DNA of 62,969 nucleotides, the filler included. It is 8 parts of 8 records of this genome, joined end to end, with 100 filler letters (N's around TTAATTAATTAA, not from the genome) between each part and the next. Parts side by side here need not be neighbours in the genome. Positions count along the whole stretch, not along the records: positions 1 to 14,509 come from SRR31156797_8016; 7 more parts are not named here. One strand, 5' to 3'. Shown piece by piece: positions 1 to 40,514 of the stretch. Positions within the stretch are counted from its first letter, which is position 1; each line of letters opens with the position of its first letter. The notes beneath the pieces are model-generated. The model ran no database searches. It worked only from the letters and a program-made list of their open reading frames with translations, and was not told the origin of the DNA. The translations under genes were made by a program, and so were the position numbers.

Positions 1-19
1 AATCCTCTCATCCCGACCA
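1..19 (+). tRNA. 3' end of tRNA-Pro (partial); probable att core
   Basis: AAT-CCTCT-CATCCCG-A-CCA parses exactly as T-loop end, 5-nt T-stem strand, 7-nt acceptor strand (pairs with 5' CGGGATG), discriminator A and CCA. C1:G72 with A73 is the tRNA-Pro signature. The rest of the tRNA lies outside the window. Confidence 0.8.
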
Positions 20-27
20 GATAATTC

Positions 28-67
28 AAGGGTTTATGAAGGCAGCTTCGTAAACCCTTTTATTTTT
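28..67 (+). terminator. Hairpin plus T-tract downstream of the tRNA end
   Basis: AAGGGTTTATGAAG-GCAG-CTTCGTAAACCCTT (14-bp stem, one G-U pair) followed by TTATTTTT. Confidence 0.7.
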
Positions 68-84
68 GCTAACCTATTGCTAAC
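66..84. repeat. Direct repeat TTGCTAAC x2; candidate tyrosine-integrase arm-binding sites
   Basis: TTGCTAAC at 66-73 and 77-84 (11-bp spacing), just inside the tRNA-derived core. Confidence 0.5.
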
Positions 85-117
85 AGAAATCCTCACTACT
101 CCAAATATATTGAACAT

Positions 118-808
118 GTTTCAATCCACGCCCCCGTGCGGGGGGCGACATGTTGTTTAGCAAGGGCAACAATGTAATCGCGGTTTCAATCCACGCTCCC
201 ACAAGGGGAGCGACATCCACGGATAAAGTGAGCTGCAACGTTTTCGAAGTTTCAATCCACGCCCCTCTGTTAAGGACTACGTAAGTTCATTTGCTTTATT
301 TTCAACGCAAATATTTCAACCCACGCCCCGGTGCGGGAGGCGCCGTCAGAAATATTTACAGGCTGCAGAATATCCCCTGTTTCAATCCACGCCCCGCACA
401 AGGGGCAACTCGAACTGATACACATCTTTCAGTCTGTAGCTCGTGTATCAATCCACGCCCCCGTGCGGGAGAGGCGACTCGAACAATTTAAATCCGCGTA
501 AGCGGCGGGAGGGTTTCAATCCACGATCCATACTAGGAGCGACTTCCAGATTACTTTTTTACCCTGTTTGTAATACGGGTTTCAATCCATGCCCCCGCGC
601 GGAAAGCCACTTCTGGATGGTGCGCTTGCTAACGTTATCTATCATATTTCAGTCACGCTCCCGTATGAGGAGCGACGCGCCGAAATACGAGGTGAACGCA
701 TTTATCATCCAGTTTCAATCCGCGCCCCCGAGCGAAAGGCGACGAGCGAGTCCGCCACGGGCATGTCCAACGCCCTGTTTCAATCCACGCTCCCGCATGG
801 GGAGCGAC
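118..808 (-). CRISPR. Type I-C CRISPR array, 11 highly heterogeneous repeats and 10 spacers
   Basis: Repeats (31-34 bp, + strand consensus GTTTCAATCCACGCYCCCNNNNGGGGRGCGAC) start at 118, 183, 249, 313, 379, 445, 513, 579, 646, 712 and 777. Spacers are 32-35 bp. The array is adjacent to cas2. Confidence 0.97.
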
Positions 809-986
809 GGTTGCTTTTTCAAGCCTTTATTTTAAAGGGCTCACGAAATTGATTTCGCGAACCCTTTAAAATTTGTTTTTCTCAATCACATCCAAAAAAC
901 CACCAAGCTATAACAAACTAAAAACAACTCACTTTTTCGGCAAATGCGAACCTCCCGGGATTTTCTGTTCTGCTTGGGGTTCGCAC
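809..986 (-). promoter_or_regulatory. CRISPR leader
   Basis: AT-rich stretch between the cas2 stop and the first repeat. It has GCGAACC at 857-863 and 946-952 and the inverted copy GGTTCGC at 978-984, motifs typical of I-C leaders. Confidence 0.8.
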
Positions 987-1280
987 TTACAGGATCAACA
1001 CATCATTTTCGGGGTCATATCCTTGCCCTACTCCATGATGCTCCACTCTACGCTGCCAATTTTTGCCTAAAAAATAAAAACGCAAGCTATCGCTTTCCTC
1101 TTCATACTCATCTAGCAATTTTTGACGCAAATTTGCCCATTGTCCGGGGTCAACAACACACTCGAAAACCGAATACTGAACCCGTTGTCCATAGTTCTCA
1201 CAGACCTTGGCAATACGACGCAACCGTCTTTTGCCCCCATCATCTTCAAAACTCACATCATAACTGACAAGTACAAGCAT
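987..1280 (-). CDS. cas2: CRISPR-associated endoribonuclease Cas2
   Basis: MLVLVSYDV, GQRVQYSVFEC and DSLRFY motifs. Confidence 0.97.
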   Translation of the reverse strand: MLVLVSYDVSFEDDGGKRRLRRIAKVCENYGQRVQYSVFECVVDPGQWANLRQKLLDEYEEESDSLRFYFLGKNWQRRVEHHGVGQGYDPENDVLIL

Positions 1281-1283
1281 GGA

Positions 1284-2315
1284 TCACTTCCAGAAAAATG
1301 GCGGATACCCGTCAAGATCGTTTCGCAGACAACGAACGAGTAGCTTTGCCTGCACATGAAAAGCAATCCCTAATGGAATCTTCTCTTTGATATAAGGATG
1401 CAGGACAATATCGCTTTTACGTTTCTGCCAAGCCTGCAACACAGTTTTACGCGTATCATCATTCATAAGCACGGCACCACTTTCCTTTACAGAAAACCCC
1501 TTGCTGCTGACTTCACCACGATTAATAAGCGTCAAGACGATTCTGTCAGCCATAAATGAACGAAACTCCTCCATCATATCCAGTGCCAACCCCGGCCTGC
1601 CCGGACGGTCGCGATGCAAAAATCCAACTTGTGGATCAAGCCCGACTGCCTCAAGAGCAGACCGCACATCATGAGCCAAAAGAGTATAAACAAAGGACAG
1701 CAGACAATTCACCTTATCAAGCGGTGGACGACGATTGCGTCCTGTAAATGAAAATTCTCCGTCATTTTTCAGAATAAGCTCATCAAATACATTAAAGTAG
1801 ACATTAGCAGCTCTACCCTCCAGCCCACGAGCCTCTTCAAGCTCCAAAGGACTGCTCAATCTTCGTGCATAGGAATCCAGTTCAAGGGCCGCATTCTCAA
1901 GACGCCTTGAATCTATACGCTCCCCGTGGTCACGCAACCCTCTGCGCAATACGGCCCTTGAGTTAACCGTCTTGCCAATCAAAAAACTACGCGCCAGCGC
2001 AGAGGTCTGCATAGGCTCATCAGCCCGACGATACTGCTCACGACGCAACAAGACATTCCCGCTTTGCGGACCTTTTACACCTGCCAGAAAACGTCCGTTC
2101 TCTGTCAGAAAAGACACGGAAAGTCCGTTCTCTGCGCAATGACCAAGCAAGAAAGGACTGCACAGGACATTACCAAAACAGACTACGCCATCCAAAACAT
2201 GAACAGGAAATTTCCTTTTACTCCCGTCTTCCGAACGGACAACAATACATTCGCCATCCTTGGACAAATAACTGCCCTGAGTGGTCACATAAAGAGTGTT
2301 GAGCAATTTTTTCAA
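1284..2315 (-). CDS. cas1: Cas1, subtype I-C
   Basis: MKKLLNTLYVTTQG, RGLEG, RNRRPPLD, GFLH, LALDMMEEFR and C-terminal YPPFFWK. Confidence 0.98.
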   Translation of the reverse strand: MKKLLNTLYVTTQGSYLSKDGECIVVRSEDGSKRKFPVHVLDGVVCFGNVLCSPFLLGHCAENGLSVSFLTENGRFLAGVKGPQSGNVLLRREQYRRADEPMQTSALARSFLIGKTVNSRAVLRRGLRDHGERIDSRRLENAALELDSYARRLSSPLELEEARGLEGRAANVYFNVFDELILKNDGEFSFTGRNRRPPLDKVNCLLSFVYTLLAHDVRSALEAVGLDPQVGFLHRDRPGRPGLALDMMEEFRSFMADRIVLTLINRGEVSSKGFSVKESGAVLMNDDTRKTVLQAWQKRKSDIVLHPYIKEKIPLGIAFHVQAKLLVRCLRNDLDGYPPFFWK

Positions 2316-2324
2316 AATTCATTC

Positions 2325-2939
2325 CTATTCTTTAAGAGCACTCAGCAGATATGACTCCACCTTTGTGCTTCCAACTCCGGGCATGCATTCTCCGGCCAAC
2401 GAGCATGAACGGCATTTCTTATCTTTGACAGCTGCCGGAGTACGGGCTTCGGCTATCATTTTATGGAGCTTTATAGCCGTTTCTTTTACCAGCACCTTAA
2501 GCTTATCGTCGAAAACAACAACTTCCCTGCGGCGAGGCTTACCGTAAAAGATAGCTCCTTCCGGGACTGAGCCCCCCAACATTTCTTCAAGACAAAGAGC
2601 CTGTGCGCAAAGCTGGACGCGATCCCAATCCAAAACCTTGGGGCTGCCCCTTTTGTATTCCACCGGATACGGGACTTCTCTTCCATCCGGTCCGGGAACC
2701 ATTTCTACAACATCGGCAATGCCGTATAATCCCAACCGCTCACTTTTAAGCGGTACGGATAAATCCTGATCAGCCCCGGCGCGCCTTCCCCGCTGTTCGG
2801 AATCGACGCGCCGGTGCATGATTCTGCCTTCCACAGTAAACCTGTTCTCAACCCAGACCTTTTCAACATGGATGAGGGCGCACTGGCGCGGGCAGAACAG
2901 ATAATGCTGTAATGCAGAAATAGAAAGTAATTCGGACAT
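2325..2939 (-). CDS. cas4: Cas4 exonuclease
   Basis: ISALQHYLFCPRQCAL, GIADVVE, PVEYKRG, QLCAQALCLEE and the C-terminal Fe-S cysteines CRSCSLAGEC. Confidence 0.97.
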   Translation of the reverse strand: MSELLSISALQHYLFCPRQCALIHVEKVWVENRFTVEGRIMHRRVDSEQRGRRAGADQDLSVPLKSERLGLYGIADVVEMVPGPDGREVPYPVEYKRGSPKVLDWDRVQLCAQALCLEEMLGGSVPEGAIFYGKPRRREVVVFDDKLKVLVKETAIKLHKMIAEARTPAAVKDKKCRSCSLAGECMPGVGSTKVESYLLSALKE

Positions 2940-2941
2940 GT

Positions 2942-3817
2942 TTAGAACTTAATATCCAGCTCAACACCTTCAGGAACTGCCGATTCATCAACTTTTACGG
3001 TATAATCGGAAAAGGCCCTTGCCGGTCCATCTGTGCTATTGCTGGGTTCAACAGAGACAGCATCAAAAAGCGTGTGCGCAGGCGAATTACCCAGCTTGCT
3101 TTCATGTTTAAAGACAACCAATCCACGGGCATTCATTTTACCCCTTGCTGCGGAATGATCATGGTCGAACATATTGGCAAGGGACTGCCAAAGCAGTTCA
3201 AGATCGCTTTCGGAAAAGCCGGTTCCCTTGTCGCCGTCGGCGAAATGAGCGGAAATGTATCCCTCAGCGCGGTATAAGGCATAGGGAACTATAAATTTAC
3301 GTCCTATGGTGCGTTCTTTTTCAACATCCTTTTCATTGGTGACTGCCATACGGGTAATGCTGATTTCTGAAGGCATAATCGGCTCTACGCTTTTGGCAAA
3401 AGTAAGTTGCACAGGGCCTCGCACCTGCCCGCAGTTTACCTCGGTAGTCATTACCGCCCCGAATGTTCTTACATCAAAGAAATTATCACACATCCAGCGG
3501 GTCAACTCGCGGGCCTTGACCTGATCTTTGGGAAGCTTTTTCTTGTCAGGTTTGATCTCAAGAGCCTTATAAGCCTGTTCATTGTTCCGGTTCAAAACGG
3601 CTTTTTCTGCAACGTAGATATTAAAACCCTTTTCTTCACCTTTAGCGATTTCAACAAAATTCCTGATTTTACGTTTCAGGCAGACATCGGTAACAAGACC
3701 ATGCCCTGTTTCAGGATCAACCCTAGGCAGATTTCCAGCATCCGGGTCGCCGTTGGGGTTTCCGTTTTCAACATCAAAAAGATATACGAATTCGTAACGA
3801 TTGCTGATTGCGCTCAT
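2942..3817 (-). CDS. cas7: Cas7/Csd2, type I-C
   Basis: NGNPNGDPDAGNLPR, TDVCLKRKIRN and DHDHSAARG. Confidence 0.97.
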   Translation of the reverse strand: MSAISNRYEFVYLFDVENGNPNGDPDAGNLPRVDPETGHGLVTDVCLKRKIRNFVEIAKGEEKGFNIYVAEKAVLNRNNEQAYKALEIKPDKKKLPKDQVKARELTRWMCDNFFDVRTFGAVMTTEVNCGQVRGPVQLTFAKSVEPIMPSEISITRMAVTNEKDVEKERTIGRKFIVPYALYRAEGYISAHFADGDKGTGFSESDLELLWQSLANMFDHDHSAARGKMNARGLVVFKHESKLGNSPAHTLFDAVSVEPSNSTDGPARAFSDYTVKVDESAVPEGVELDIKF

Positions 3818-3820: not shown

Positions 3821-5539
3821 TTATGCCTCCGCAGTAGTCTGTTTGGGTGAGAAAAAATCCTGCCTTTGCTGATAATAACCGATGATAAACATGCCCTGCT
3901 TTTCCAGATTCAATGCCGCAGGAAAACCATCCTGCGAATCTACTTCGCCAAGTATTTCCTGAATTGATCTATCAAGATTCACCGCGTATCCGGGCTTATC
4001 CTTGCGAATTTTGGCAAGACCGTTCTGGGCATTGCGTAAAATAACAGGAAATGTCCTTGCCGGAGTAGCAGACGCGGAACTGAAAAAACGATCCCTGACT
4101 GTTGCGTTGCTGCCGGGAACAGCTTCTTCCTGGATCCGCTCCACAATGGCGAAAAGACGCCCCAGCCTGTACCCAATCTCACCATTTTCCTTATCAAGAG
4201 CCATATTGATCTCCTGTTGATAGTTACGAACCAGAACAGCCTTGATTATCCCGGCCCGGATATATCCGATATTTTTGTCAGCCCTGATCCTTCCTATAGC
4301 TGCGTTCAGCAGGGTCATGGGATAAGGGCTGTTTCTGATGATAGCTTTAAGCAACTGCCCGCTCAAAAGCGGTGATATATTCCGAGAATCCTGCTGGGCA
4401 GCAAGTTCTTTCAAAATCCACCACGGACTTGGATTTTCCGGGGTTTTCGGAGGTTTCCCAGCCAATGACATCTGTTCAAAATGTCTGCCGATATTGGAAA
4501 ACATTTCCCCGACCGTTCCCACATGCCAGAAGCGCACAGAGATACGCGCAGCATTAGGCGATAACCCCAACACGTAGAATGGAGTTTCAGGCTTACCGAG
4601 TTCACGGGGAAGCTTGCCTGAGGCCAGAGTGGACAACAGCCCACCTAGTCTTTTGGCAAGGTCCTTGTCTTCTGATTCCCTTGCCCCCATAACCAAACCG
4701 AATAATCCTTCTACTTCCTTTGGAGCTTCGGTCCAGAACAGCACGGTTGTATCCCCCACCTGAACCTTGCGCGAACTTCCCGGTGCCAGAAGATGGTTCA
4801 AAGCCGTGGTGTAGGCAAAGGCTGCTTTTTCGGAAATAGGCGAAAGCTGATTCTGTTTTTTCCCAAGCGATTCTGCGGAATCGATATTAAAGGACACAAG
4901 TGCGGCCCCTGCAGTCTGAGCACCGGGAACGCCTTTAATTTTGGCATGGGTATTTGGTATGGAGACATCGTCCTCACCAGTGACCAGACATTTCCCCTTT
5001 TTGCTCCCCGCCTTGCTGTCCAAAGACTTTGACCAAGCCTCGCGTATGGCCTCTCGTTCATGAAGAAAGCCCCGCTCTCCGTCGAGCCTGAAAACAAGAA
5101 AACTGTCCAGCACCTCATCCCAGCCCTTCAAGCTCTCGGCTTTCTCCGGCTCCCATTTCTCTAAAAAAGAAAGCAGAGCATCTCCGCCGTCATCATCAAC
5201 ACCTTTCAGAATGGTGCAGACTAAATCTTTAAAGCCCCCATGCGTCTTTGCCGTTCGCTCCGGTTTGCCTTTGCCGTCAACTCCCAAAACGTACCCGGTA
5301 TTATCCCATACAAAATTAGGAAGAACCGTGTTGCCACTTCTCCCGACAGGCCCCGGCACTTCAATCCGAACCGGTTTGCCGTTCTCACGCAAATCAAGAG
5401 GGTCGCCAACAAGATTGCCTTCACTATCAATGGTTAAACAAAAATGAACTCCCTGCTTTCCGAACCCGAATGGAGGGACATCCACATCAGGATCATCGGC
5501 CATACGAATGTAATAGTCATTGAGAGCCTGCAAAATCAT
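3821..5539 (-). CDS. cas8c: Cas8c/Csd1 large subunit
   Basis: MILQAL start overlapping the cas5 stop (ATGA), DNTGYVLG, CLVTG, LSPNAARISVRFW and GYYQQ. Confidence 0.96.
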   Translation of the reverse strand: MILQALNDYYIRMADDPDVDVPPFGFGKQGVHFCLTIDSEGNLVGDPLDLRENGKPVRIEVPGPVGRSGNTVLPNFVWDNTGYVLGVDGKGKPERTAKTHGGFKDLVCTILKGVDDDGGDALLSFLEKWEPEKAESLKGWDEVLDSFLVFRLDGERGFLHEREAIREAWSKSLDSKAGSKKGKCLVTGEDDVSIPNTHAKIKGVPGAQTAGAALVSFNIDSAESLGKKQNQLSPISEKAAFAYTTALNHLLAPGSSRKVQVGDTTVLFWTEAPKEVEGLFGLVMGARESEDKDLAKRLGGLLSTLASGKLPRELGKPETPFYVLGLSPNAARISVRFWHVGTVGEMFSNIGRHFEQMSLAGKPPKTPENPSPWWILKELAAQQDSRNISPLLSGQLLKAIIRNSPYPMTLLNAAIGRIRADKNIGYIRAGIIKAVLVRNYQQEINMALDKENGEIGYRLGRLFAIVERIQEEAVPGSNATVRDRFFSSASATPARTFPVILRNAQNGLAKIRKDKPGYAVNLDRSIQEILGEVDSQDGFPAALNLEKQGMFIIGYYQQRQDFFSPKQTTAEA

Positions 5540-6201
5540 GCGCACTGCCCTCCGTTACGGCATTCAATAATCCCGTTTTGCATAACCGGACGGAAAAACT
5601 CGGGGGTCATGCCAGCTTTGTAATCAATGTCGTGGAGCATCCATCCGAGATCGGTTTCACCTTCAATTTCAGAAACAGGAATATCTCCCTCAACCGGACT
5701 GAATGCAGCAGCAAATTCCCGGCAGCCCAGATAAGGACGATGAAAGCACTGCCCCTTTGCTGCACGACGATTGAAGATATCCAGATGCTTGCCGTCGTTA
5801 CGGTCTTCATTAGAGGTATATTCAAAACGGGCTTCAATGATGTAATCCACATCACGCAGAACCATAGCCGCACGCTGCTGTCGGACTTCTTCCACATAAA
5901 TCCGCAGATTACCTTTTCCGCTTTTCATGGCGGAACCGACCCCGGTCTTTCCTTTTACCGGAACTTTTGCCGAGACCTCGTTTCGCCGAATATTGTCGAA
6001 ACGAACAGATTTGAGCACATGGATTCTGTCCACCACCCACTTTATGCTCGGCTTCCAATAAATGGCTTCCAGAATCCCACGGGCAGCAGAGGGAGTCATG
6101 ACATCATAACTCACCCGTTCCACCTTCATTTCCGGGCGGGTGAAGCAAGCATAATCTCCCCAAACCCTCAATTTAACTCCTGTGGCCACATACACCTCCA
6201 T
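5536..6201 (-). CDS. cas5: Cas5c/Cas5d (crRNA-processing)
   Basis: ACFTRPEMKVERVSYDVMTPSAARGILEAIYWKP and PYLGCREF. Confidence 0.97.
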   Translation of the reverse strand: MEVYVATGVKLRVWGDYACFTRPEMKVERVSYDVMTPSAARGILEAIYWKPSIKWVVDRIHVLKSVRFDNIRRNEVSAKVPVKGKTGVGSAMKSGKGNLRIYVEEVRQQRAAMVLRDVDYIIEARFEYTSNEDRNDGKHLDIFNRRAAKGQCFHRPYLGCREFAAAFSPVEGDIPVSEIEGETDLGWMLHDIDYKAGMTPEFFRPVMQNGIIECRNGGQCA

Positions 6202-6205: not shown

Positions 6206-8359
6206 TTAAACTATGAAGTTGTCATTCGAAATATTTTCAGGAACCAACAATCCAGCTTCAAAATCATACAGACTCTCATCTACCAACACGGCATAACTTT
6301 CATCCACAATCTCAATTGCACCCATATCATTAAGTGCTGCAAATTGTTGCGTATAAACCTGTACTGTAAACTGTTGTAGCTTACGCAGAATGGATGCCGG
6401 AAAATCTGCAAAAACCAAATCACGCAGCAGTTTTTCGGCTTTATCATTGTATTTAACAATGATCGGGACCATTTCATTTTCAATAAGCCGAAATTTTTTG
6501 GCTGCCGTGCGAAAATCCCATTGGCCGTGGGGACTGTTCAAATCTTCAAGCACTTTCTTTTTGTCTAACTGATCACTTTTAAGCCAATAGGTATCCGCAA
6601 AAAAATGATGCATTGCTTGCGGGGAAAATGAATCCTCAGGATGCAGGCGCAATGTATTTTGAGCATTACCCGCCGCCTGCCGGAAGTGCCCGGCCAATCC
6701 TTCAGCAGGTTCAAAAACCGAGACCCGCCCCATCTCCGCCAGTTCGCCTTCGCGGTTACATCTTCCCGCAGCCTGAGCAATTGAATCAAGCCCGGCCAGT
6801 TCGCGGATGACAACGGGAAAACTTACATCAACACCGGCCTCAATAAGCTGGGTGCTGACGATACGGCACGGCTTTCCTGCAACGAGTCTGGTTCGAATAT
6901 CTGTCAGGACTTCCGAGCGGTGCGCAGGACACATCAATGCACTCAAATGGGCCGCTCCCGGTTCGTCTTTAATTTTGGAAAACAATTCCGCTGCACGAGT
7001 TCTGGTATTAACGATACATAAACCCTGCTCTGTCTCACAAATTTCCTGTGCAACTTCATCGAGGGACAAGACTCCTTTGTCATGCAGCTCTGTGCGTTTG
7101 AACTCTCTATGCATACGCTCCGGGTCCGGCGCCAGTTCTTCCGCTATTTCCAGACCATCAGTAAAGCTTTCAGATTTCTGTAATGCAGGCTGGGTGGCGG
7201 TACACAGCACAACACTGGAATTATAATTCTCGGTAAGCTCCTCTAGAGCACGCATGCACGGTTTGAGATATTCAACAGGCAGCATCTGGGCTTCGTCCAG
7301 AATCACAACCGATCCGGCAAGATTATGCAGTTTGCGGCAGCGGGAAGGCTTTGCAGCGAAAAGAGATTCGAAAAACTGAACATTGGTTGTCACCACGATT
7401 GGTGCATCCCAGTTCTCACAGGCAAGACGGTGCTTAAGACCCGCAAAAGGAATTTCTTCCTCATCTTTCAGCCTGCTGTCATCAAAATTGCTATGGTGCT
7501 CAATTACAGAACCGGGAGGGAAAATATCTTTAAAAACACGGGCGTTCTGCTCAATAATCGACGTGTAGGGAATGACGTAAATAATCCTGCGCATACCGTG
7601 TTTCAAGGCATGCTTAAAAGCGAAGGCCATGGAAGTAAGAGTTTTTCCGCCTCCGGTAGGCACTGTGAGTGTGAAAAGGCCGGGATTCAGGTCTGCACTT
7701 TCAAGGCAATGGTTCAAGATCTCGCAGCGAAGCTTATTAATGTGGGTGTCCGGCTTGAATTTGCTGATCCGTTCGTTAAGCCTCTCATTTAGAACTTCCA
7801 AGCTGGGCCCTGCTTCACGCATGGAAAACTTTTTTGCATCCATGAACCGCTCGGTATCCAAAAAATCTGCGTCCACCAATGCCGAAAAAAGCATGCGGGT
7901 AAAAAATGATAATTGAAAAGCGGAGGTAGGACGAAAAGGAAGCTCTGCAGAAACAAGCTTAAAGGATATTTCTGGTACGGACTCTATATAAGGTTCAGCT
8001 TTCTCCAAAATATCATCTAAAGATTCGCCCAAATCCGCATGTGATGAGTCCGGCAAACCTCCATGGTGTCCGGCTATGCAGAAAGACAATAATTTGCCAG
8101 CATGGCCTAGCTTATCAGACAACAACCTAGCGCCGATACTTTTATGGTCAACTATCGCATTTGAATTTGAATGAAGTTTTCTCTGAAAATCCGGCTTGAA
8201 CTTACCGTAGTCATGGAATTTACCGGCCAATTTACCCCAATCAGAACCAGCGAAAACAGCCGAAAATTTCGAAGCCAAAGCCGCGACTTCATCCAGATGA
8301 TCATCAAGAAGCTGCCACGCATCCTCATCAACCCCCTCTTTCGTATGTGCGTAATACAC
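6206..8359 (-). CDS. cas3: Cas3 HD-nuclease/helicase
   Basis: YAHT...HL, HDYGK, GHHGGL, LVDADFLD, Walker A PTGGGKT, DEAQ and QAAGRCNR. Confidence 0.98.
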   Translation of the reverse strand: MYYAHTKEGVDEDAWQLLDDHLDEVAALASKFSAVFAGSDWGKLAGKFHDYGKFKPDFQRKLHSNSNAIVDHKSIGARLLSDKLGHAGKLLSFCIAGHHGGLPDSSHADLGESLDDILEKAEPYIESVPEISFKLVSAELPFRPTSAFQLSFFTRMLFSALVDADFLDTERFMDAKKFSMREAGPSLEVLNERLNERISKFKPDTHINKLRCEILNHCLESADLNPGLFTLTVPTGGGKTLTSMAFAFKHALKHGMRRIIYVIPYTSIIEQNARVFKDIFPPGSVIEHHSNFDDSRLKDEEEIPFAGLKHRLACENWDAPIVVTTNVQFFESLFAAKPSRCRKLHNLAGSVVILDEAQMLPVEYLKPCMRALEELTENYNSSVVLCTATQPALQKSESFTDGLEIAEELAPDPERMHREFKRTELHDKGVLSLDEVAQEICETEQGLCIVNTRTRAAELFSKIKDEPGAAHLSALMCPAHRSEVLTDIRTRLVAGKPCRIVSTQLIEAGVDVSFPVVIRELAGLDSIAQAAGRCNREGELAEMGRVSVFEPAEGLAGHFRQAAGNAQNTLRLHPEDSFSPQAMHHFFADTYWLKSDQLDKKKVLEDLNSPHGQWDFRTAAKKFRLIENEMVPIIVKYNDKAEKLLRDLVFADFPASILRKLQQFTVQVYTQQFAALNDMGAIEIVDESYAVLVDESLYDFEAGLLVPENISNDNFIV

Positions 8360-9242: not shown

Positions 9243-10151
9243 TTGATCAAAAAAATTATATTCTTAATCTTCATATTCTTTGGAATGGCTCTAAACATAG
9301 GATGTGAAAGTATTCAGTATGGATATGAAGACACCTATGCGTATACTGTCTCTAAAGACACATACTTTGATGACTTTGAATTTCGGGACTACTTGAGAAG
9401 ATATTCAAAGCTATACAAAGAATACAATGCAAACAAAACAGTCGAGGTCGATTCGCAAGCTGCTGTGGCAGGACCAGCTCTTTCCGGTCTTATGGGTGCG
9501 GCTTCTCCCCCTCCCGGATTTACCAATCTTGCGGGAGGACTTTTAAATTTCTTATTTTGGTCTGGAACAAAAGTTTACCCATACCAGTTCCCGAAATTTT
9601 TTATCTGGGATAAATCTAAGTCCGAAGATACCCCTGAAAAAATCAATAAGGCAATTTCAGAACAGTTCTCCATTGCTGTTAAAGCGGAAGTCGAAAAGCG
9701 CAAACTGTTTTTAGGCTATAATTCGGAAATGACGAAAGAACTAAGCGAGGACGGTAAAATAGTTCTAGCGTTCAATAACGGGCAGAAAGATAGGGAGACA
9801 CCAATCTATTGTCGCATAGGTCTGGAACCAGTATATGATCTCCCTAAAAAAGAAAATTCCCCAAAAGGATTTGGTCCCAATGAGTCTTGGCATACAGCAG
9901 GGCCAATTGGAGGGTATTGCTTCTATCACACGGAAGCAATGTTTGGGTACAATACAAAAGGATATCCGTTCCCTTTTGCTAACTTTGAATTTTGGTTAAG
10001 CTTAAGCAAACGCCTGCCTTCTAATTTCTTTATTTATCTGGCTCCTGCGGGGAAATATTATTACTGCAAGTTTGAAAACGGCGAAAAACTAATGCACCCT
10101 GTCGTACTCAACCAAGGGCAACCCCACTGGTTCTATCCCGGTGCTAAGTAG
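9243..10151 (+). CDS. Hypothetical exported protein or lipoprotein
   Basis: 302-aa ORF with an N-terminal hydrophobic signal ending NIGC. No family recognised. Confidence 0.7.
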   Translation: MIKKIIFLIFIFFGMALNIGCESIQYGYEDTYAYTVSKDTYFDDFEFRDYLRRYSKLYKEYNANKTVEVDSQAAVAGPALSGLMGAASPPPGFTNLAGGLLNFLFWSGTKVYPYQFPKFFIWDKSKSEDTPEKINKAISEQFSIAVKAEVEKRKLFLGYNSEMTKELSEDGKIVLAFNNGQKDRETPIYCRIGLEPVYDLPKKENSPKGFGPNESWHTAGPIGGYCFYHTEAMFGYNTKGYPFPFANFEFWLSLSKRLPSNFFIYLAPAGKYYYCKFENGEKLMHPVVLNQGQPHWFYPGAK

Positions 10152-10309: not shown

Positions 10310-10843
10310 TCAGAATACGCTCCTCCCCATAGATCTTTCCTCTTTCATGGACTTGGCCTCTCTAATCAATTTATCTTCAGTCATCCCCTTATTCAGGACT
10401 TTAACTTGTTTCAGCCCATACTTCTTCTCCAGCTTTCGCATAACTTCCATATTTCGCCGCCTTGAAAACCGATCGCTCCAGACATCACGTCCATCACGAC
10501 TTATACGGTTAGCAATCAAATGATAATGAACCCGTCCTGTCTCAGTGTGCTTGTACAGGCAATATTCATGCTTCTGAGGGTCCATTTTCATTTCTCGCAT
10601 ATAATCCTCGGCTAGGTAACGTGGGTTCTTGATGACGTCACCTTTGGCAGGGTTAAGAGAGGCGTGGAAAACTACTTTTTTCGCACGCCCCTCATACATA
10701 TCACGAGTCTGGTTAAACTCCTTGGACAACTCTGCCGGACTTGCACCAAGCATATTCGTTGCCTCCAGACTCGCACCCATCTTTTCAGCACAATACCGGA
10801 CACAACCACCAAAGCCTTTTCCTTGGGTAATGTTTCCAATCAT
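10310..10843 (-). CDS. MOBP-type relaxase (minimal, 177 aa)
   Basis: N-terminal GKGFGGCVRY (catalytic Tyr), VFHASLN and HUH motif HTETGRVHYHLIANRI. Confidence 0.9.
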   Translation of the reverse strand: MIGNITQGKGFGGCVRYCAEKMGASLEATNMLGASPAELSKEFNQTRDMYEGRAKKVVFHASLNPAKGDVIKNPRYLAEDYMREMKMDPQKHEYCLYKHTETGRVHYHLIANRISRDGRDVWSDRFSRRRNMEVMRKLEKKYGLKQVKVLNKGMTEDKLIREAKSMKEERSMGRSVF

Positions 10844-14748: not shown

Positions 14749-17700
14749 TTGTTTGAAGAAAAAAAATTAGAGTATTTAGATTTTACATACAACAACTTTA
14801 ACATATATACTGCATCAGATAAAAATAAAAATAAATATATAGTAAAAACAACAAAAGATTTGTATTCTAATAGAGATGATATTTTATTATTAGAAAACGA
14901 ATATAATATATTGAAAAAATTAACTAATAAAAGATTATTATTACCACTTGATATTGAAAAGTATGATAATAGAATTTATTTATATTTTGAATATTTTGAT
15001 GGTTTTAGTTTAAGACATTTTTTTAATAATATAAATAGTACTCAACTTCTTAAGTTTTTATCTATATCAATTAAAATTATAGAGGTATTAAATTACATAC
15101 ATAAAAATAGGATTATTCATAATTTTATTAATTGTAATTCTATTTTAATAAATAAAGATTTTAGCGAAATAAGACTTGTTAATTTTGAATATAGTTTTTA
15201 TTTAAATAATTCTGATATAAAACCTTTTATTAATAATGGAATATATACTGCTCCTGAACAAACGGACAGAATAGATTTAAATCCTAATGAAAAAACAGAT
15301 ATTTATTCATTAGGTGTGTTGTTTTATGAATTGATAATTGGTCAAGATAATTATAGTGAAATGTTTAAAGATATTTCTACTTATGATATAGTTGCAAAAG
15401 AGTTACCAAAACTTTCAAGTATCAAAAATGATTTCCCTGAACTTATATCTAATATCATACATAAAATGATTGTTAAAAATCCTGATGATAGATATGATAG
15501 TCTTTTATCATTACTTATTGATTTAAAAAAAGCTTTTAATCAATTGACAAAATCAAAACAAATAGATAATTTCCCTTTAGATACTTTAAAAAAAGATTTT
15601 TTAACTGGGAACAAAAATTTGTTTTTTGGTAGAGATGAAGAAATAACATCTTTTTTAATAAATTTTTCAAATGATAAAGATACTAATCAACTATATGTTA
15701 TTTCTGGAAAGTCTGGAACAGGAAAAACAACTTTTATAAAAAAAGGTATTGAATATTATAAAAATAGTTTTAATCTTATAGAAGTGAAATTTGATAACTA
15801 TAAACAATATATACCTTATAAAACTTTATTTAACAGTTTTAGAACTTTGTGTAAAGAGATTTTGATAAAAGACAAATCTGAATTATTACATTGGAAAAGC
15901 AAACTTTTAGTTAGTATTGGTGAAGAGATACAAGTTTTATTTGACTTTATTCCTGAATTAAAAACAATAGTTGGTGAACAAGATTCAATTGAAGTATTGA
16001 ATCTTGTAGATTCAAAAAATAGATTTAACAATATACTTATAAAATTTTTACAGCTTTTTGCTACTAAAAAAAATCCATTAATCATATTTTTAGATGATAT
16101 GCAGTGGAGCGATAATATTACACTTGAATGGCTTGATAGTTTTATTCAAAGAGTTTCTTATGTAAAAGTTGTTTTAACATATAGAGATAATGAAGTTGAT
16201 AAAAATTCATTGTTATTAAAAAAAATAAAAAGCATAAAAAAATCAGCAGTAAGAGTTTTTGAATACCATATAAAAGAGTTAACTAAAGTTAATATAGAAA
16301 ATTTAATTACTACAAATATTGAGCTAAATAATTCTAGTTTATTTTCTACTCTTGTTTATAAAAAAACTGGAGGTAATGCATTTTTTGTAATTCAATTTTT
16401 AAAAGATTTGTTATATGAAAAAGTTTTGTATTTTGACGAAGAGAAATTAACTTGGAATTATGATGTTGAAAGACTAAATAAAGTTAATGCAAAAAGTAGT
16501 ATTATCGAGTTTCTTGAAAAAAGAATTTCTATTTTAAGTGATAATGAAATTTTACTATTGCAAATTGCATCTTGTGTTGGAAATCTATTTTCATATAAAA
16601 TTCTTAAAAACATTACTAAATTAGATGATGATTTTGATAATACTTTAAAGATGTGTTTAGATAATGAGTGGATTTCAAAAAGTGGGTTAGTTGATAATAA
16701 ATATTTTCAATTTTCCCATGATAGAATTCAGCAAGTTTTTTATTCATCTATAAATGAAAAAACTCTTATTTCTTTTCATAAGTTGATTGGTGATTTCTAT
16801 TATAAAGATTTTAAAAGTAGGAACGAAGAAAATCTTTTATTGTGTGTGAACCATTATAACAAAGCGAAAAAACATTTTATTGAAAACTCAAAAACAAAAA
16901 CTCTAGGAAAGCTTAATCATAAGGCTTCATTATTAGCTAGAAAAAATGGAGATTTTGAATTATCAGACAGTTATATAAATAAACTGTTTGAGTTTTATAA
17001 TGGAATAGAAACTGATATAAATTATGGAGAATACTTAAAAGATTATGCAGTTTGTAAACACTTAATTTATAATCAAACTAAAGCAATAGAGTTTTACTAT
17101 AAAGCTCTGGATAATTGTAATGATGATTTAAAAAAAGCATATATTTATGAGCAGCTGATAAAACTTTATAGTGATTTTTCAGATTTTGAAAGTGCTTATA
17201 AAATAGGGAAAAAAGCTTTAAGTTTATTTGATATTTTTATACCTAGTGGATTTAATCCTATTCTTTTTGTAAAAGAATTTTTAGAACTAAAAATCAAACT
17301 AAGTGGTAAAAATACAGAAGACTTACTAAAGCTAAAAGAAGCAGAAGATGAGAGAGTTATTATTGCTATTAAACTATTATCTTGTGTATTAAAAGCAGCT
17401 TATCAAATAAAACCCCAGCTATGTGTTCTAGTTGCAATGAAAGTTGTGAAAGCTTGTATTAAGTATGGAGATACAAAAGACGCAGTAATTGGCTTTATGG
17501 TTTTTGGAATAATCTTTCAAGGAGCAGTGTTGGGTAATCATAAATTGGGATATGATTATGCAATGCTATCTTTAAATATGATAAAAAAATATAAAAATTC
17601 AATTTTAGAACCAGAGGTTAAATTTGTTTCTGGTTATTTTGGATTATCTTGGATTAATCCTACTTCAATTACAGAAAAAAACTGGAATGAATCTTATAAA

Positions 17701-19728
17701 AATGGTATTTTAATTGGAGATTTATTTCATAGTGCATGTGCGGCAACAGGTATAAGTGAAAGTATGTTTTTAAGAGGCTGTAAGTTCTCAGAATTGAATA
17801 AACAGTTGGATGTTTTTATAAAAGAGTTATCAAAACGTGGAGGTAGTGAACAACTAGCTATTATTGTAGGTATTAAACAAGCACTAAAAAATATTCAAGG
17901 GAAAACCTATAGTTTAGATACCTTTAGTGATGAGAGTTTTGATGAGAATAAATATATTAAAAAACTTGATAATTTTAGCTCTTTACATTTTGCGCATATA
18001 TTTTATATTAATAAAATAATTACACTTTATTTTCATGAAAAATATGAATTATCTTTAAAATATATTGAGATAAGTAAACAATATTTAAATGATTCAAAAG
18101 GTACTGTTCATTCTACTGAACACTATTTTTATGAATCATTAATTTACTCTAAACTTTTAGATACTGTTGGATTTAAAGATAAAATTTTGTTTATTAATAA
18201 AATCAAAAAAAACACAAAAATGTTTGAAGAATATGCAAAACTTTGCCCTGAGAATTTTGTTGTAAGAAAATATATTTTAAATGCAATAGTTGCAAAAGTA
18301 AAAAATGACTATATTTTAGCTCAAAAATATTTTTTTAAAGCATTAGAGATAGCAAAAGTGTATTCTCAACTAAATTTAAAAACAATTGCATCAAAAAATT
18401 TATTTGAGATTTATACATATTTAGAGCAAACTAGATTTGCAAATATTTATAAAAATGAATATATAAAAAATATAAGAGAGTGGAGTGGTTTTACTAATAA
18501 TTTAAAAGAAAATGAAAGAATTGAAAATATAAGTCTGGATATATATACTTTAATTAAATCAAGCGAAATTATTTTTAAGGAAAAAGAACTTTCTTCTCTT
18601 CTAAAAAGTCTTATTAAAATTTTACTTGAAAGTTCTGGTGCCCAAAATGCAATAATCATATTAGAAGAAGATTTTGAATACAAAGTTGAAGCTTTTGCTT
18701 GTAATAATGATTTATCTTCAATTAAGGTATTAGTTAATAAAGAGTACAAAAAATTTGAATATCTTCTTCATGATATTGTTAAATATGTTATTAGAACAAA
18801 AGAGCAAATTGTAATAAATGATTTGGAAAAAGAACCACTTTTTTTTACAGAAAAAGAAAATAGAAAAGTTAAATCAGTACTCTCTTTTCCTTTAATATTA
18901 CAAGATAATTTAAAGGGTGTAATTTATCTAGAAAACAATCTTATATCTGGGGTTTTTACCGAAGAAAAAATTGAACTGCTTAAACATATTAGTACACAAA
19001 TTGCAATCTCCATTGAGAATGCGAAAATATATAAAAATCTAGAAGAAAAAGTACAGAATAGAACAAAAGATTTAGATAATAAAAATGAAGTATTACAGAA
19101 GCAAAATAGACTTTTACAAGAGCAAAATAAGAAAATACTTAATTTAAACACAAGTATTATTGAAGAAAATGAAAAGAGGAAAATTGTAGAATTAAAACTG
19201 CAAAAAGCAGTTAAAGAATTAGATCTTTTAGCAACAACAGATTCTTTAACAAAATTAAAAAATAGAAGAGTTTTTGATAAGGTTTTGGAAGAAGAGTGTA
19301 TGAGAGTTTCAAGAAATAACGATACTTTGTCATTAATAATGTGCGATATTGATTATTTTAAAAGATATAATGATTTTTATGGTCATGTACAAGGGGATGA
19401 GTGCTTGAAGTTCGTTTCAGAAATATTAGAAAGCAATATAAAAAGAACAACTGATGTGATTGCTAGATATGGAGGAGAAGAGTTTTCTATTATTATGCCA
19501 AATACAAAAAAAGAAGAAGCAATAACTTTAGCTAATAATATTATAAAAAGCTTTGCAAAAGAGCAAAAGCTGCATGAAAAATCAGATATTGCAAATCATA
19601 TAACTATTAGTATGGGAGTTGCAAGTTCAAATGAAATTGAAATTTTAACACCAAAAAATCTAATAAGAGCTGCTGATAATAAACTTTATGAAGCAAAAGA
19701 GAATGGAAGAAACCAAGTAAAATATTAA
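14749..19728 (+). CDS. Multidomain (pseudo)Ser/Thr kinase - AAA ATPase - helical repeats - GAF - GGDEF diguanylate cyclase
   Basis: APEQT and DIYSLG kinase motifs; Walker A GKSGTGKT; LDDMQW; GAF GVIYLEN; DIDYFK...RTTD-ARYGGEEF. Confidence 0.9.
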   Translation: MFEEKKLEYLDFTYNNFNIYTASDKNKNKYIVKTTKDLYSNRDDILLLENEYNILKKLTNKRLLLPLDIEKYDNRIYLYFEYFDGFSLRHFFNNINSTQLLKFLSISIKIIEVLNYIHKNRIIHNFINCNSILINKDFSEIRLVNFEYSFYLNNSDIKPFINNGIYTAPEQTDRIDLNPNEKTDIYSLGVLFYELIIGQDNYSEMFKDISTYDIVAKELPKLSSIKNDFPELISNIIHKMIVKNPDDRYDSLLSLLIDLKKAFNQLTKSKQIDNFPLDTLKKDFLTGNKNLFFGRDEEITSFLINFSNDKDTNQLYVISGKSGTGKTTFIKKGIEYYKNSFNLIEVKFDNYKQYIPYKTLFNSFRTLCKEILIKDKSELLHWKSKLLVSIGEEIQVLFDFIPELKTIVGEQDSIEVLNLVDSKNRFNNILIKFLQLFATKKNPLIIFLDDMQWSDNITLEWLDSFIQRVSYVKVVLTYRDNEVDKNSLLLKKIKSIKKSAVRVFEYHIKELTKVNIENLITTNIELNNSSLFSTLVYKKTGGNAFFVIQFLKDLLYEKVLYFDEEKLTWNYDVERLNKVNAKSSIIEFLEKRISILSDNEILLLQIASCVGNLFSYKILKNITKLDDDFDNTLKMCLDNEWISKSGLVDNKYFQFSHDRIQQVFYSSINEKTLISFHKLIGDFYYKDFKSRNEENLLLCVNHYNKAKKHFIENSKTKTLGKLNHKASLLARKNGDFELSDSYINKLFEFYNGIETDINYGEYLKDYAVCKHLIYNQTKAIEFYYKALDNCNDDLKKAYIYEQLIKLYSDFSDFESAYKIGKKALSLFDIFIPSGFNPILFVKEFLELKIKLSGKNTEDLLKLKEAEDERVIIAIKLLSCVLKAAYQIKPQLCVLVAMKVVKACIKYGDTKDAVIGFMVFGIIFQGAVLGNHKLGYDYAMLSLNMIKKYKNSILEPEVKFVSGYFGLSWINPTSITEKNWNESYKNGILIGDLFHSACAATGISESMFLRGCKFSELNKQLDVFIKELSKRGGSEQLAIIVGIKQALKNIQGKTYSLDTFSDESFDENKYIKKLDNFSSLHFAHIFYINKIITLYFHEKYELSLKYIEISKQYLNDSKGTVHSTEHYFYESLIYSKLLDTVGFKDKILFINKIKKNTKMFEEYAKLCPENFVVRKYILNAIVAKVKNDYILAQKYFFKALEIAKVYSQLNLKTIASKNLFEIYTYLEQTRFANIYKNEYIKNIREWSGFTNNLKENERIENISLDIYTLIKSSEIIFKEKELSSLLKSLIKILLESSGAQNAIIILEEDFEYKVEAFACNNDLSSIKVLVNKEYKKFEYLLHDIVKYVIRTKEQIVINDLEKEPLFFTEKENRKVKSVLSFPLILQDNLKGVIYLENNLISGVFTEEKIELLKHISTQIAISIENAKIYKNLEEKVQNRTKDLDNKNEVLQKQNRLLQEQNKKILNLNTSIIEENEKRKIVELKLQKAVKELDLLATTDSLTKLKNRRVFDKVLEEECMRVSRNNDTLSLIMCDIDYFKRYNDFYGHVQGDECLKFVSEILESNIKRTTDVIARYGGEEFSIIMPNTKKEEAITLANNIIKSFAKEQKLHEKSDIANHITISMGVASSNEIEILTPKNLIRAADNKLYEAKENGRNQVKY

Positions 19729-38344: not shown

Positions 38345-39652
38345 ATGCCTATAATGGTTACTGCGGCAATATGCGCTGTTGTTCTTCTCCTGCTTATCAT
38401 CGGTGGTGTCCACATCTTTCTGGCTCTCGGCGTTTCAGGAACTCTTGGACTCCTATTGACAAAGGGGCCTAATGCACTGGCTCTCGCGGCAACGTCCTTT
38501 TTCGGGCAGCTGAACAGCTTTGAAATGATCGCATTGCCCTTGTTTATTCTCATGGGGCATGTTCTGGCCAAAACCCCCATCGGAAGGGATCTTTTTCACG
38601 CTGCCTCCAGATGGCTGAGCTGGCTGCCCGGGGGTTTGGCTATTGCTTCGGTAGGCGCTTGCACGGTTTTCGGCGCGGTCAGCGGGGTCAGCATTGCGGG
38701 CGTGGCCGCGGTCGGCGGATTGGCTGTGCCTGAAATGATGAATCGCGGGTACAGTAAAAGTCTGGCCTCGGGTTCAGTGGTTACCGCCGGCGCCCTGGCC
38801 ATGCTCATACCGCCAAGCGTTCCCTTTATTATTTATAGCGCCGTGACCGGAGAATCCGTGGCCCAGTTGTTTATCGGAGGAATTGTTCCGGGACTGGTCC
38901 TCGCTCTTTTACTTAGTGCGTTTATTTTTATCCGCGTCCTTGTCAGGCCCGAAGAAGCTCCTGACCGCGGTGAACTAAAATATTCCTGGAAGGATCGTTT
39001 TTCAAGTCTCGGTCGAATCTGGCACGCCGTTTTGCTGATAGTGCTGGTGTTGGGTTCTATCTACTCGGGCCTGGCCACGCCGACCGAAGCATCGGCCGTG
39101 GGCGCCGCTGGTGCGTTTTTAATTGCCGGGCTTGTTTATCGAATCCTGACGGTTAAAACCGTTTTGCAGATATTGAAGGAATCCCTGCGGGTCAGCGCGG
39201 CCATATTGATTATCATGGCCTGTGCAAAAATTTTCGGCGATTTTCTTAACATGGTCAGGGTGCCCCAGCAGCTTTCAGCCTATCTGCTCGGCTTGAACCT
39301 GCCCAACGAAGTAATTCTGTTGGTTATCATGGTCTTGCTTATCTGCCTGGGCATGTTCGTGGACGCCGTGTCCCTTATCGTGGTCACAACCCCCATTCTT
39401 TTGCCCCTGATAACCGGCATGGGATACGATCCGCTCTGGTACGGCATCATTCTGGTTATGAACCTGGAAATGGCTGTGGTCACGCCGCCTGTCGGATTGA
39501 ATCTCTACACCTTGCGAGGAGTTTGCCCGTTCCTCAAGATAGAGGAAATCATAAGGAGTTCGATCCCCTTTGTAATAATCCAGTTTGTCGGCTTGATCCT
39601 CTTCACTCTTTTCCCGGTTATCAGCCTTTGGCTGCCGAGGTTGGCGCAGTAA
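38345..39652 (+). CDS. dctM: TRAP transporter large permease DctM
   Basis: ALPLFILMG, LIPPS, ATPTEAS and VTPPVGLNL. Confidence 0.95.
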   Translation: MPIMVTAAICAVVLLLLIIGGVHIFLALGVSGTLGLLLTKGPNALALAATSFFGQLNSFEMIALPLFILMGHVLAKTPIGRDLFHAASRWLSWLPGGLAIASVGACTVFGAVSGVSIAGVAAVGGLAVPEMMNRGYSKSLASGSVVTAGALAMLIPPSVPFIIYSAVTGESVAQLFIGGIVPGLVLALLLSAFIFIRVLVRPEEAPDRGELKYSWKDRFSSLGRIWHAVLLIVLVLGSIYSGLATPTEASAVGAAGAFLIAGLVYRILTVKTVLQILKESLRVSAAILIIMACAKIFGDFLNMVRVPQQLSAYLLGLNLPNEVILLVIMVLLICLGMFVDAVSLIVVTTPILLPLITGMGYDPLWYGIILVMNLEMAVVTPPVGLNLYTLRGVCPFLKIEEIIRSSIPFVIIQFVGLILFTLFPVISLWLPRLAQ

Positions 39653-39653
39653 A

Positions 39654-40514
39654 ATGATTATTGATAAGAAAAACAATCCGATTCAATTAACGCCGGGCAA
39701 AACGGTTCTAAGCGTTGGAGTGTTTGACGCTCTGACCGCGCGCATTGCCGACCGGGCCGGCGTTCCTTCGATATATATAACCGGTTATGGCGCCGCGGCC
39801 GCCGTCCTGGGCGTTCCGGACATAGGCCTCATGTCCATGACCGAAATGGTTTCGCACGTCAGATATATATCATCCGCCGTTAATTGCCCTGTCATTGCGG
39901 ATGCGGATACGGGATACGGAGGTCCGGCCAATGTATGGCGGACCGTCAGGGAATATGAAAAAGCCGGCGTAAACGTTATCCAGCTTGAAGACCAGGAATG
40001 GCCGAAAAAATGCGGGCACATGGAAGGCAAACGCCTTGTGGGGCCGGAAGAAATGATTTCCAGGATAAGGACCGCTGTTTCAGCACGTCAAAGCGAGGAT
40101 TTTAAAATCATTGCTCGTACGGACGCCATTGCCGTGGAGGGTTTTTCAGCGGCCGTGGACAGGGCCGGCGCATATCTGGATGCCGGGGCTGACATTCTTT
40201 TTGTGGAAGCTCCCCAAAGTGAACAGCAAATGAAGGATATTCCCGGATTATTCAACGCCCCTTGCCTGGCCAACATGGTCGAAGGCGGTAAAACCCCGTA
40301 CAAATCCATCAGAGAATTGGAAGACATGGGATATGCCATAGCCATATTCCCTATTTCGACGCTACTGGCCGCGGTTCATACCGTGCGGAAAGTCGTCGAT
40401 ACACTCAATAGTCATGGGACGGCCGCCGACATGGCCGACAGCATGATCGACTTTTCAACCTTTAACAAGTTAATCGGCCTTGAAGATTATTTAGCCCTGG
40501 AAAAGGTTCAATAA
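39654..40514 (+). CDS. Isocitrate lyase/PEP mutase family lyase (PrpB/2,3-dimethylmalate lyase-like)
   Basis: DADTGYG, EDQEWPKKCGH, IARTDA and NMVEGGKTP. Confidence 0.9.
   Translation: MIIDKKNNPIQLTPGKTVLSVGVFDALTARIADRAGVPSIYITGYGAAAAVLGVPDIGLMSMTEMVSHVRYISSAVNCPVIADADTGYGGPANVWRTVREYEKAGVNVIQLEDQEWPKKCGHMEGKRLVGPEEMISRIRTAVSARQSEDFKIIARTDAIAVEGFSAAVDRAGAYLDAGADILFVEAPQSEQQMKDIPGLFNAPCLANMVEGGKTPYKSIRELEDMGYAIAIFPISTLLAAVHTVRKVVDTLNSHGTAADMADSMIDFSTFNKLIGLEDYLALEKVQ

Follow-up and report, generated by a model that had tools for sequence, protein, structure and literature searches.

The window analyzed here, a stretch of 62,969 nucleotides (nt) made of eight parts of eight records of one genome joined by filler, carries at positions 118–808 a type I-C CRISPR array of 11 repeats and 10 spacers, with the CRISPR RNA (crRNA) encoded on the minus strand. 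No two of the 11 repeats are the same; they have a mean pairwise edit distance of 7.9 (minimum 2, R2 against R11; maximum 12), and on an alignment of the 11 repeats 71 of the 75 cells (94.7%) of the canonical 7-base-pair (bp) stem are paired. What is new is the divergence of repeats over a whole type I-C array; in the literature searched, with supplements outside the search, we found no report of an entire array of mutually different, hairpin-preserving repeats. Our best explanation, held with about even confidence, is that this is a genuine cas-adjacent type I-C array that constitutes an old block of immune memory and whose repeats have been filtered for processability.

Repeat divergence and pairing of the hairpin

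The array reads from position 808 toward 118, and because the leader and the minus-strand cas genes adjoin the R11 side, R11 is the leader-proximal repeat and R1 the trailer. A 14-nt handle motif, spaced 64–68 nt, is common to the 11 units; with up to three mismatches allowed, the pattern occurs 15 times in the window compared with 4.7 ± 2.25 times in shuffled sequence (0 of 100 shuffles reach 15). The consensus layout of the units is that of type I-C, composed of a 2-nt tail, a 7-bp stem, a loop of about 5 nt, and an 11-nt handle, and in each repeat the 5′ arm is C-rich and the 3′ arm G-rich on the minus strand. Seven repeats are 32 nt long; R6 is longer, at 34 nt, and R5, R7, and R9 are shorter, at 31 nt; the boundaries of these four have been slightly corrected from the first reading. 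The 10 spacers of 32–35 nt, close to the regular type I-C length of about 33–36 nt, are all unique, and none recurs elsewhere in the window. In order of transcription the units are:

777–808, minus: R11, 32 nt; exact canonical variant; stem pair 6–18 U-A, loop CAUGC; −13.0 kcal/mol
744–776, minus: S10, 33 nt; within relatives' contigs
712–743, minus: R10, 32 nt; three consecutive U·G stem pairs; U22 changed to C
677–711, minus: S9, 35 nt; one listed difference in relatives (679)
646–676, minus: R9, 31 nt; stem intact (U-A and one U·G); handle with one deletion and two substitutions
611–645, minus: S8, 35 nt; two listed differences in relatives (621, 629)
579–610, minus: R8, 32 nt; three U·G pairs; cleavage-site base pair lost (C3G, G21A)
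544–578, minus: S7, 35 nt
513–543, minus: R7, 31 nt; internal C·U mismatch; weakest hairpin, −4.8 kcal/mol
479–512, minus: S6, 34 nt
445–478, minus: R6, 34 nt; 2-nt insertion in the 5′ arm; two U·G pairs; handle A30U
410–444, minus: S5, 35 nt
379–409, minus: R5, 31 nt; stem one pair shorter (both arms); U·G at the base
345–378, minus: S4, 34 nt
313–344, minus: R4, 32 nt; one U·G pair; loop-closing pair lost; handle A25G and C32U
281–312, minus: S3, 32 nt
249–280, minus: R3, 32 nt; two U·G and one compensated U-A; base pair lost (A·G)
215–248, minus: S2, 34 nt
183–214, minus: R2, 32 nt; R11 type with two loop changes
150–182, minus: S1, 33 nt; oldest spacer
118–149, minus: R1, 32 nt; exact canonical variant; pair 6–18 C-G, loop CGCAC; strongest hairpin, −15.1 kcal/mol

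The first-pass annotation of this DNA had claimed that all 11 repeats differ and had given arm sequences for R3, R5, R6, R8, R9, and R10 and an internal mismatch in R7; the edit distances bear out the first statement, and every one of these arms, and the mismatch, agrees with our re-reading. For comparison we collected 160 loci by a Cas1 search of genome and metagenome collections. Among the related type I-C loci, 90 had four or more detectable repeats, and their mean pairwise difference never exceeds 2.4 and is 0 in most, in a comparison set that arrays with destroyed handles would escape, given that the repeat detector requires a recognizable handle. Among 48 arrays with a complete trailer end, the number of trailing nonconsensus repeats is zero in 21, one in 25, and two in 2. 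Repeats within one type I-C array are as a rule identical or nearly so, and those of the window array are neither: it is an extreme outlier in repeat heterogeneity among related type I-C arrays. Its two end repeats, R1 and R11, differ from each other at 5 positions, and each has identical counterparts in ordinary uniform arrays elsewhere (the R11 32-mer is present in 24 copies in 2 related loci), and R2–R10 lie 2–7 edits from the nearest of the 59 repeat variants found in the 160 loci. R11 and R10 are 8 edits apart. For any two repeats, the longest run of identical letters that they have in common has a median length of 10 nt and a maximum of 22 nt; between neighbors it is 5–14 nt. Tandem Repeats Finder returned 0 rows for positions 1–3000, and the sole Rfam match at E up to 1 was that of R1 to CRISPR-DR9 (24.1 bits, under the gathering score of 45). 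It is plausible, as the first-pass annotation remarked, that CRISPR finders based on repeat identity could overlook a functional-looking array of this kind.

Changes relative to the consensus of the 11 repeats, counted by cell on a MAFFT alignment, are distributed very unevenly over the repeat:

5′ tail: 1 of 22 cells changed
5′ arm: 22 of 77 cells changed, 20 of these C>T
loop: 20 of 55 cells changed
3′ arm: 10 of 77 cells changed, including 6 G>A, 5 of which face U
handle: 10 of 121 cells changed by MAFFT, about 7 with R9 aligned by hand

The rate of change in the loop is six times that in the handle, as expected from the first-pass claim that the handle is much better conserved. The six C-G pairs of the stem include 13 U·G cells, 5 U-A cells, and 0 C·A cells; 13 U·G against 0 C·A gives p = 1.2e-4, and 6 against 0, with each column counted once, gives p = 0.016. 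The four unpaired stem cells lie at the stem base (R3 and R8), at the loop-closing pair (R4), and internally (R7). Both of the statements previously made about the stem are therein confirmed: its changes are mostly C-to-U in the 5′ arm opposite G or are compensated, and uncompensated G-to-A changes in the 3′ arm are essentially absent, the sole case being G21A at the stem base of R8.

The pairing exceeds what is obtained from several randomizations. Shuffles within columns give 89.9 ± 1.4% paired cells, with 2 of 500 reaching the observed value, and sliding the 3′ partner by 1–3 columns lowers pairing to 39–75%. Neutral simulations with a strand-symmetrized spectrum and the number of substitutions per repeat kept (5000 runs each) give 81% pairing when changes are placed anywhere and 77% when they are confined to stem and loop, and the observed pairing is reached in 1 and 0 of the 5000 runs, respectively; the comparison of substitution asymmetry with a neutral model proposed in the first-pass annotation is in this form favorable to it. 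Individual regions point in the same direction. G-to-A changes affect 3 of 11 loop sites and, as unpaired changes, 1 of 66 G sites of the 3′ arm (p = 0.008); changes at A/T sites affect 5 of 11 loop A and 4 of 77 handle sites (p = 0.001); and changes at G affect 4 of 11 loop and 1 of 33 handle sites (p = 0.01). When the repeats are folded in isolation, a hairpin at the canonical position is the minimum free energy (MFE) structure in 9 of the 11 (−6.2 to −15.1 kcal/mol), with that of R7 distorted and the predicted structure of R8 being other than the canonical hairpin. The fold of the whole 706-nt transcript has a z-score of −2.97, and long-range pairs are unreliable in such folds.

Cas5c cuts after G21, the 3′ base of the 7-bp stem, and cleavage by the Bacillus halodurans enzyme needs the stem base and U22-G23-G24 and neither the pentaloop nor the 5′ overhang (PMC8524198). 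The constraint map of the array fits these published requirements, with the difference that the 5′ overhang is conserved here too, though it is dispensable for B. halodurans Cas5c (PMC8524198).

The cas operon, spacer targets, and related arrays

The array adjoins a leader and seven cas genes in the order cas3-cas5-cas8c-cas7-cas4-cas1-cas2, all full-length and above the NCBIfam curated cut-offs for type I-C:

809–986, minus: leader, 178 nt; motif pattern of related type I-C leaders
987–1280, minus: cas2; TIGR01573, 3e-18
1284–2315, minus: cas1 (type I-C); TIGR03640, 2.8e-152
2325–2939, minus: cas4; NCBIfam
2942–3817, minus: cas7/csd2; NCBIfam
3821–5545, minus: cas8c/csd1; NCBIfam
5536–6201, minus: cas5c (cas5d), the pre-crRNA endonuclease; NCBIfam
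6206–8359, minus: cas3 (HD domain and helicase); NCBIfam

In alignments with 8–160 homologs each, the Cas proteins deviate at 0–2 of 20–122 columns that are at least 97% conserved, and the motif pattern of the leader is common to the leaders of 100 related loci. A decaying orphan array was considered and rejected given the seven intact cas genes and the retention of their conserved columns. A scan for sigma-70 promoters in positions 1–1300 found 0 sites, and the host may use other promoters. A long inverted repeat occupies 820–885 of the leader, and its arms share a motif with a hairpin at 28–59 beyond the array, which is terminator-like, with a 14-bp stem followed by a T run.

Related sequences were found in runs X2, X3, and X4, all from one different study. 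Contigs of these three runs match the oldest spacer, S1, and nothing else in the array (150–183), with flanks unlike any repeat and a single mismatch, at 153; in crRNA sense this is the 30th of 33 positions, distal to the protospacer adjacent motif (PAM). TTC lies directly 5′ of this target in crRNA sense in X2–X4. TTC is the PAM of type I-C systems generally. It is also the PAM of the type I-C system of Xanthomonas oryzae (PMC8406640). A TTC-flanked target was seen for 1 of the 10 spacers, and we consider it plausible from these matches that the oldest spacer still has a target in the habitat of the relatives. Searches of the array against phages and plasmids (E up to 10) returned repeat-to-repeat and short chance matches only and no credible target; a 29-nt stretch of S1 has 0 exact matches in viral_contigs; in the 160 loci, and in the window outside the array, the spacers give only chance matches of 13–15 nt; and no spacer matches the window itself at up to 7 mismatches. 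Two contigs of X4 match from 345 onward (S4), with a left flank unlike any repeat, and may carry a target of S4.

The same runs contain relatives of the array itself. Over 558–789 (232 nt) an X4 contig shows 5 differences; an X3 contig shows 2 over 660–789 (130 nt); and an X2 contig, whose sequence recurs in X3, shows 9 and no gaps over 444–608 (165 nt). Of the listed differences, the three at 621, 629, and 679 fall in spacers. The relatives share the degenerate repeats R6–R10, the 34-nt R6 and the 31-nt R7 among them, together with their spacers. In the X2/X3 relative 56 other letters replace 320–443, and likeness over 117–319 is only 79%. Runs X5–X9 contain only 0.05–0.06 of the words, and the closest hits of the Cas1 scans, at 76% in genome_contigs and 71% in metagenome_contigs, are such that no homologous array could be obtained from these collections.

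The cas2-cas1-cas4 contigs of the X2–X4 runs differ from the window by 4.4–10.8% (cas1 by 7–10%), and the leader of the relatives has 9 differences in 93 next to the repeat and, in place of 872–992, 122 other letters that are unalignable at 80%. Between lineages the array is 1.5–6% diverged compared with 4–11% for the leader and cas genes, so that the array is the more conserved, provided that array and cas contigs share strains, as their similar depths suggest. Because the degenerate R6–R10 and their spacers recur in contigs of a study whose cas1 differs by 7–10%, the spacer set is old, in agreement with the first-pass view of its age.

Logan contigs of run X1, which is probably the source sample, constitute an independent k-mer assembly and not an independent sample. 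They match 1–805 (depth 277) and 779–3000 (depth 242) with 0 differences, which, together with the degenerate repeats in the contigs of the other study, answers the earlier concern about a chimeric consensus. In the same run the summed depth over 777–808 is about 3000 against a baseline of 277 (our arithmetic from the 701–800 and 801–900 bins; 21 contigs), which implies many more R11-like repeats in run X1, on about a dozen contigs near the genome depth. Two low-depth joints of the form R11-33 letters-R11 (depths 5.2 and 4.0) may represent new spacers that are rare, or sequence of other organisms. At the opposite edge, positions 1–85 are matched by three contigs of run X1 (depths 277, 244, and 111), two of which have 10–12 differences; a Logan contig begins exactly at position 1 of the window, and 1–85 resembles a dispersed repeat of short length at which the original contig probably broke off.

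Proposed selection, possible mutational bias, and exchange between arrays or repeats

Selection for processable repeats is, in our judgment, the best reading of the substitution pattern, with an even chance of being correct. Under this explanation the leader end would no longer gain spacers, or new units arising between identical copies of R11 would be repeatedly lost by recombination. Recombination between repeats, the normal route of spacer loss, needs long identity; units flanked by diverged repeats would be hard to delete and would persist. The mutations retained would be mainly those after which Cas5c can still process the repeat and Cascade can still be loaded. In the 5′ arm the C-to-U changes still pair with G, a few U-A pairs are compensated, the loop changes freely, and the 11-nt handle and U22-G23-G24 are almost untouched. 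Most units would yield a crRNA with an 11-nt handle, its spacer, and a 21-nt hairpin, the doubtful units being those that depend on R7, R8, or the handle of R9. We infer that selection is the cause of the pattern, that processing and interference continue, and that divergence protects the units from deletion. The last of these points was anticipated in the first-pass annotation, and the short stretches shared by repeats (median 10 nt) support it; the idea itself has already been published for terminal repeats, with polymorphic repeats argued to resist homologous recombination and perhaps to persist for that reason, old spacers being kept (PMC8047081).

Several observations weigh against this explanation. 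The fourfold sites of the seven cas genes, on the crRNA-sense strand, number T 393, A 199, C 272, and G 274, and an approximately twofold mutational bias of C-to-T over G-to-A without selection is plausible; if it holds, p rises to 0.005 for 13 against 0 and to 0.09 for the column-collapsed 6 against 0, and a fourfold C-to-T bias would abolish significance. Repeats of one array are also nonindependent samples. The runs of three C-to-T changes in R8 and R10 resemble clustered deamination, which suggests that deamination was the source of the mutations and selection then only a filter. R7, R8, and the handle of R9 are altered at positions that Cas5c reportedly needs, and by our reading the MFE structure of the whole transcript shows only 6 of the 11 canonical hairpins. 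The relatives' array and cas contigs could derive from different strains. The extra R11-like repeats of run X1 may belong to another array of the same genome, a uniform one; in that case acquisition would continue elsewhere and the cas-adjacent array would be a retained fossil. Finally, the presence of two interleaved repeat types, described below, makes simple erosion of a uniform, leader-fed array insufficient as an account.

The T excess at fourfold sites could instead be inherited codon usage. Because G>A in the loop (3 of 11) is about as frequent as C>T (8 of 33), there is no strong strand bias where structure is irrelevant, and neither T nor G is in excess in the spacers, whose sense strand has 99 A, 89 T, 77 G, and 75 C. 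The first-pass claim that the array has been kept functional under structural selection is partly supported, insofar as the stem is preserved beyond a strand-symmetric model, with the reservation that a strand bias could weaken the statistics.

The rival that survives best, which we nevertheless regard as doubtful, is that the array is a neutral relic. It holds that an unused array decays under a sense-strand C-to-T bias, from transcription- or replication-linked deamination and AT pressure in a host of low G+C content (GC), with the hairpins surviving since C-to-U opposite G keeps pairing and the units persisting since diverged repeats cannot recombine. The T excess over A at fourfold sites, the 20 of 22 5′-arm changes that are C>T, with their runs in R8 and R10, and the contrast between host DNA past 14 kb (23–38% GC) and the cas island (45–50%) are all in line with it, as are the lack of visible acquisition, with R11 and R10 so far apart, and the likely damaging changes in R7, R8, and R9. 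However, such a bias should leave its trace in the loop and spacers, where the two transitions are balanced and neither T nor G is in excess, and handle A/T sites change about nine times less than loop A. The lesser divergence of the array between lineages relative to the adjacent leader and cas genes, the intactness of those genes and of the leader, and the TTC-flanked target of S1 also argue against disuse.

We are more cautious about a stronger form of selection, which we think unlikely, in which the heterogeneity is itself adaptive and a mobilizable element carries a hard-wired, recombination-proof guide set under purifying selection tighter than that on the leader and cas genes. If this were true, an adaptive array would have become an inherited, innate-like immunity against persistent rivals, and the tolerance of Cas5c for G-U stems would set the limit on repeat drift.

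New repeats copy the leader-proximal repeat, and derived states should therefore nest along an array. In this array a U-A pair at 6–18 with linked loop states is present in R2, R7, R9, and R11, interleaved with a C-G pair in R1, R3–R6, and R10 and a U·G pair in R8, a distribution that requires some exchange between arrays or some conversion between repeats. Because R1 and R11 are both exact canonical variants, the decay affects the inside of the array and spares its trailer end; R1 forms the most perfect hairpin of all, although trailer repeats are usually the degenerate ones. The proposal that repeat identity has eroded agrees with the divergence of the repeats, and simple erosion of a uniform, leader-fed array cannot give the interleaved types. 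A mosaic origin, in which units were joined or converted from several type I-C arrays by exchange at the shared handle and the hairpins were inherited already compensated, seems to us quite improbable as a full account. It draws on the two end repeats being canonical variants of other loci, on the break in nesting caused by the U-A type, and on the resemblance of other loops to further canonical types; relatives share blocks and not the whole array (444–608 in one, 558–789 in another), and R1-like and R11-like repeats are found in ordinary arrays of the same runs. Against it, the distances of R2–R10 from the nearest variant mean that most changes are private to this array, the private changes carry the same 5′-arm C-to-U excess, and the three-wobble stems of R8 and R10 are left unexplained. 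The mosaic reading can be compatible with our best explanation, and these readings, the neutral relic included, overlap.

A regulatory array similar to CreTA, in which degenerate repeats make guide-like RNAs that repress a gene of the host or element by partial complementarity, is very unlikely: the degenerate repeats of CreA are known to work with Cascade (PMC9458426), but TTC followed by the first 8–12 nt of any spacer has 0 matches in the 63-kb window (0.3 expected at 8 nt), and the array has ten full-length spacers, one with a near-perfect external target. An assembly or consensus artifact concealing uniform repeats is the least credible of all, since nothing was found in its favor beyond the mixed nature of the source run (other type I-C loci at depth 15–43), and the independent assembly without differences, the gap-free degenerate R6–R10 of the other study, and the intact adjacent cas frames speak against it.

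Genomic context and comparison with known systems

The first 14 kb of the window (45–50% GC) encode, in addition to the cas operon, a helix–turn–helix repressor, a 177-amino-acid (aa) open reading frame (ORF) with a relaxase domain, a NikA-like protein, and a TraD/TrwB-type coupling protein, and are followed past 14 kb by DNA of 23–38% GC with housekeeping genes. The nearest Cas1 proteins (71–76%) are from Desulfovibrionaceae-like genomes. This context fits a mobilizable island in a low-GC host; the ends of the island are outside the view, the window beginning 117 nt from the trailer repeat, and no transfer RNA genes that would mark an integration site are present in the window. The relaxase ORF (10310–10843) is composed of only 177 aa, the nuclease domain alone, and adjoins a 302-aa ORF without family match (9243–10151), so the mobilization module may be truncated.

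Elsewhere in the window, 14749–19728 encodes a 1659-aa protein with Ser/Thr kinase, AAA_16 ATPase, GAF, and GGDEF domains at 23–25% GC, far below the neighboring island. A second island of 50–57% GC (38345–52187) encodes a TRAP transporter, an enzyme similar to phosphoenolpyruvate mutase/isocitrate lyase, the large and small subunits of aconitase, an isopropylmalate-type dehydrogenase, an HMGL-like enzyme, a two-component system, and an ABC sugar transporter. Positions 56946–62757 encode an AlpA-like regulator, a WapI-like immunity protein, a resolvase fragment, and a 1134-aa RCC1/CARDB/PKD repeat protein, and may be another mobile or polymorphic-toxin-related patch.

Why old spacers persist is a matter of open debate, as is whether repeat polymorphism is a passive scar or a stabilizer of memory, and the arguments have mostly been made from single terminal repeats. 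The array offers ten adjoining units whose repeats are damaged to different degrees, beside type I-C machinery that apparently works; in this single locus one could gauge how much drift Cas5c and Cascade tolerate, whether stems with G-U pairs are sufficient, and whether spacers are deleted less often between diverged repeats.

Atypical repeats that still serve a Cas effector occur in CRISPR-associated transposons, where they form one or two special units with a homing guide. We rejected this candidate given that a Pfam scan of 51 ORFs (8.6–62.8 kb) detected no Tn7-like tnsA/B/C or tniQ. The ectopic degenerate repeats of CreTA likewise serve a Cas effector, but as one or two special regulatory units (PMC9458426), whereas this array has ten spacers of ordinary length and no seed match. 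Compensatory changes between repeat families (Kunin et al. 2007, PMC1896005) likewise keep the stem by covariation and wobble; there the variation is across arrays and organisms, and here it is within one array. Terminal-repeat polymorphism (PMC8047081) concerns the last repeat, usually at its 3′ end, in contrast to an array in which the internal repeats vary, R1 is perfect, and the 3′ handle is the best conserved part. The canonical type I-C arrays of Desulfovibrio vulgaris (Dvulg), B. halodurans, X. oryzae, and Streptococcus mutans have the same operon and a repeat layout of about 32 nt (PMC8524198), and likewise 32–35-nt spacers and the TTC flank seen here at one target. In those arrays the repeats are identical or only the last one or two differ; in the window array all 11 differ.

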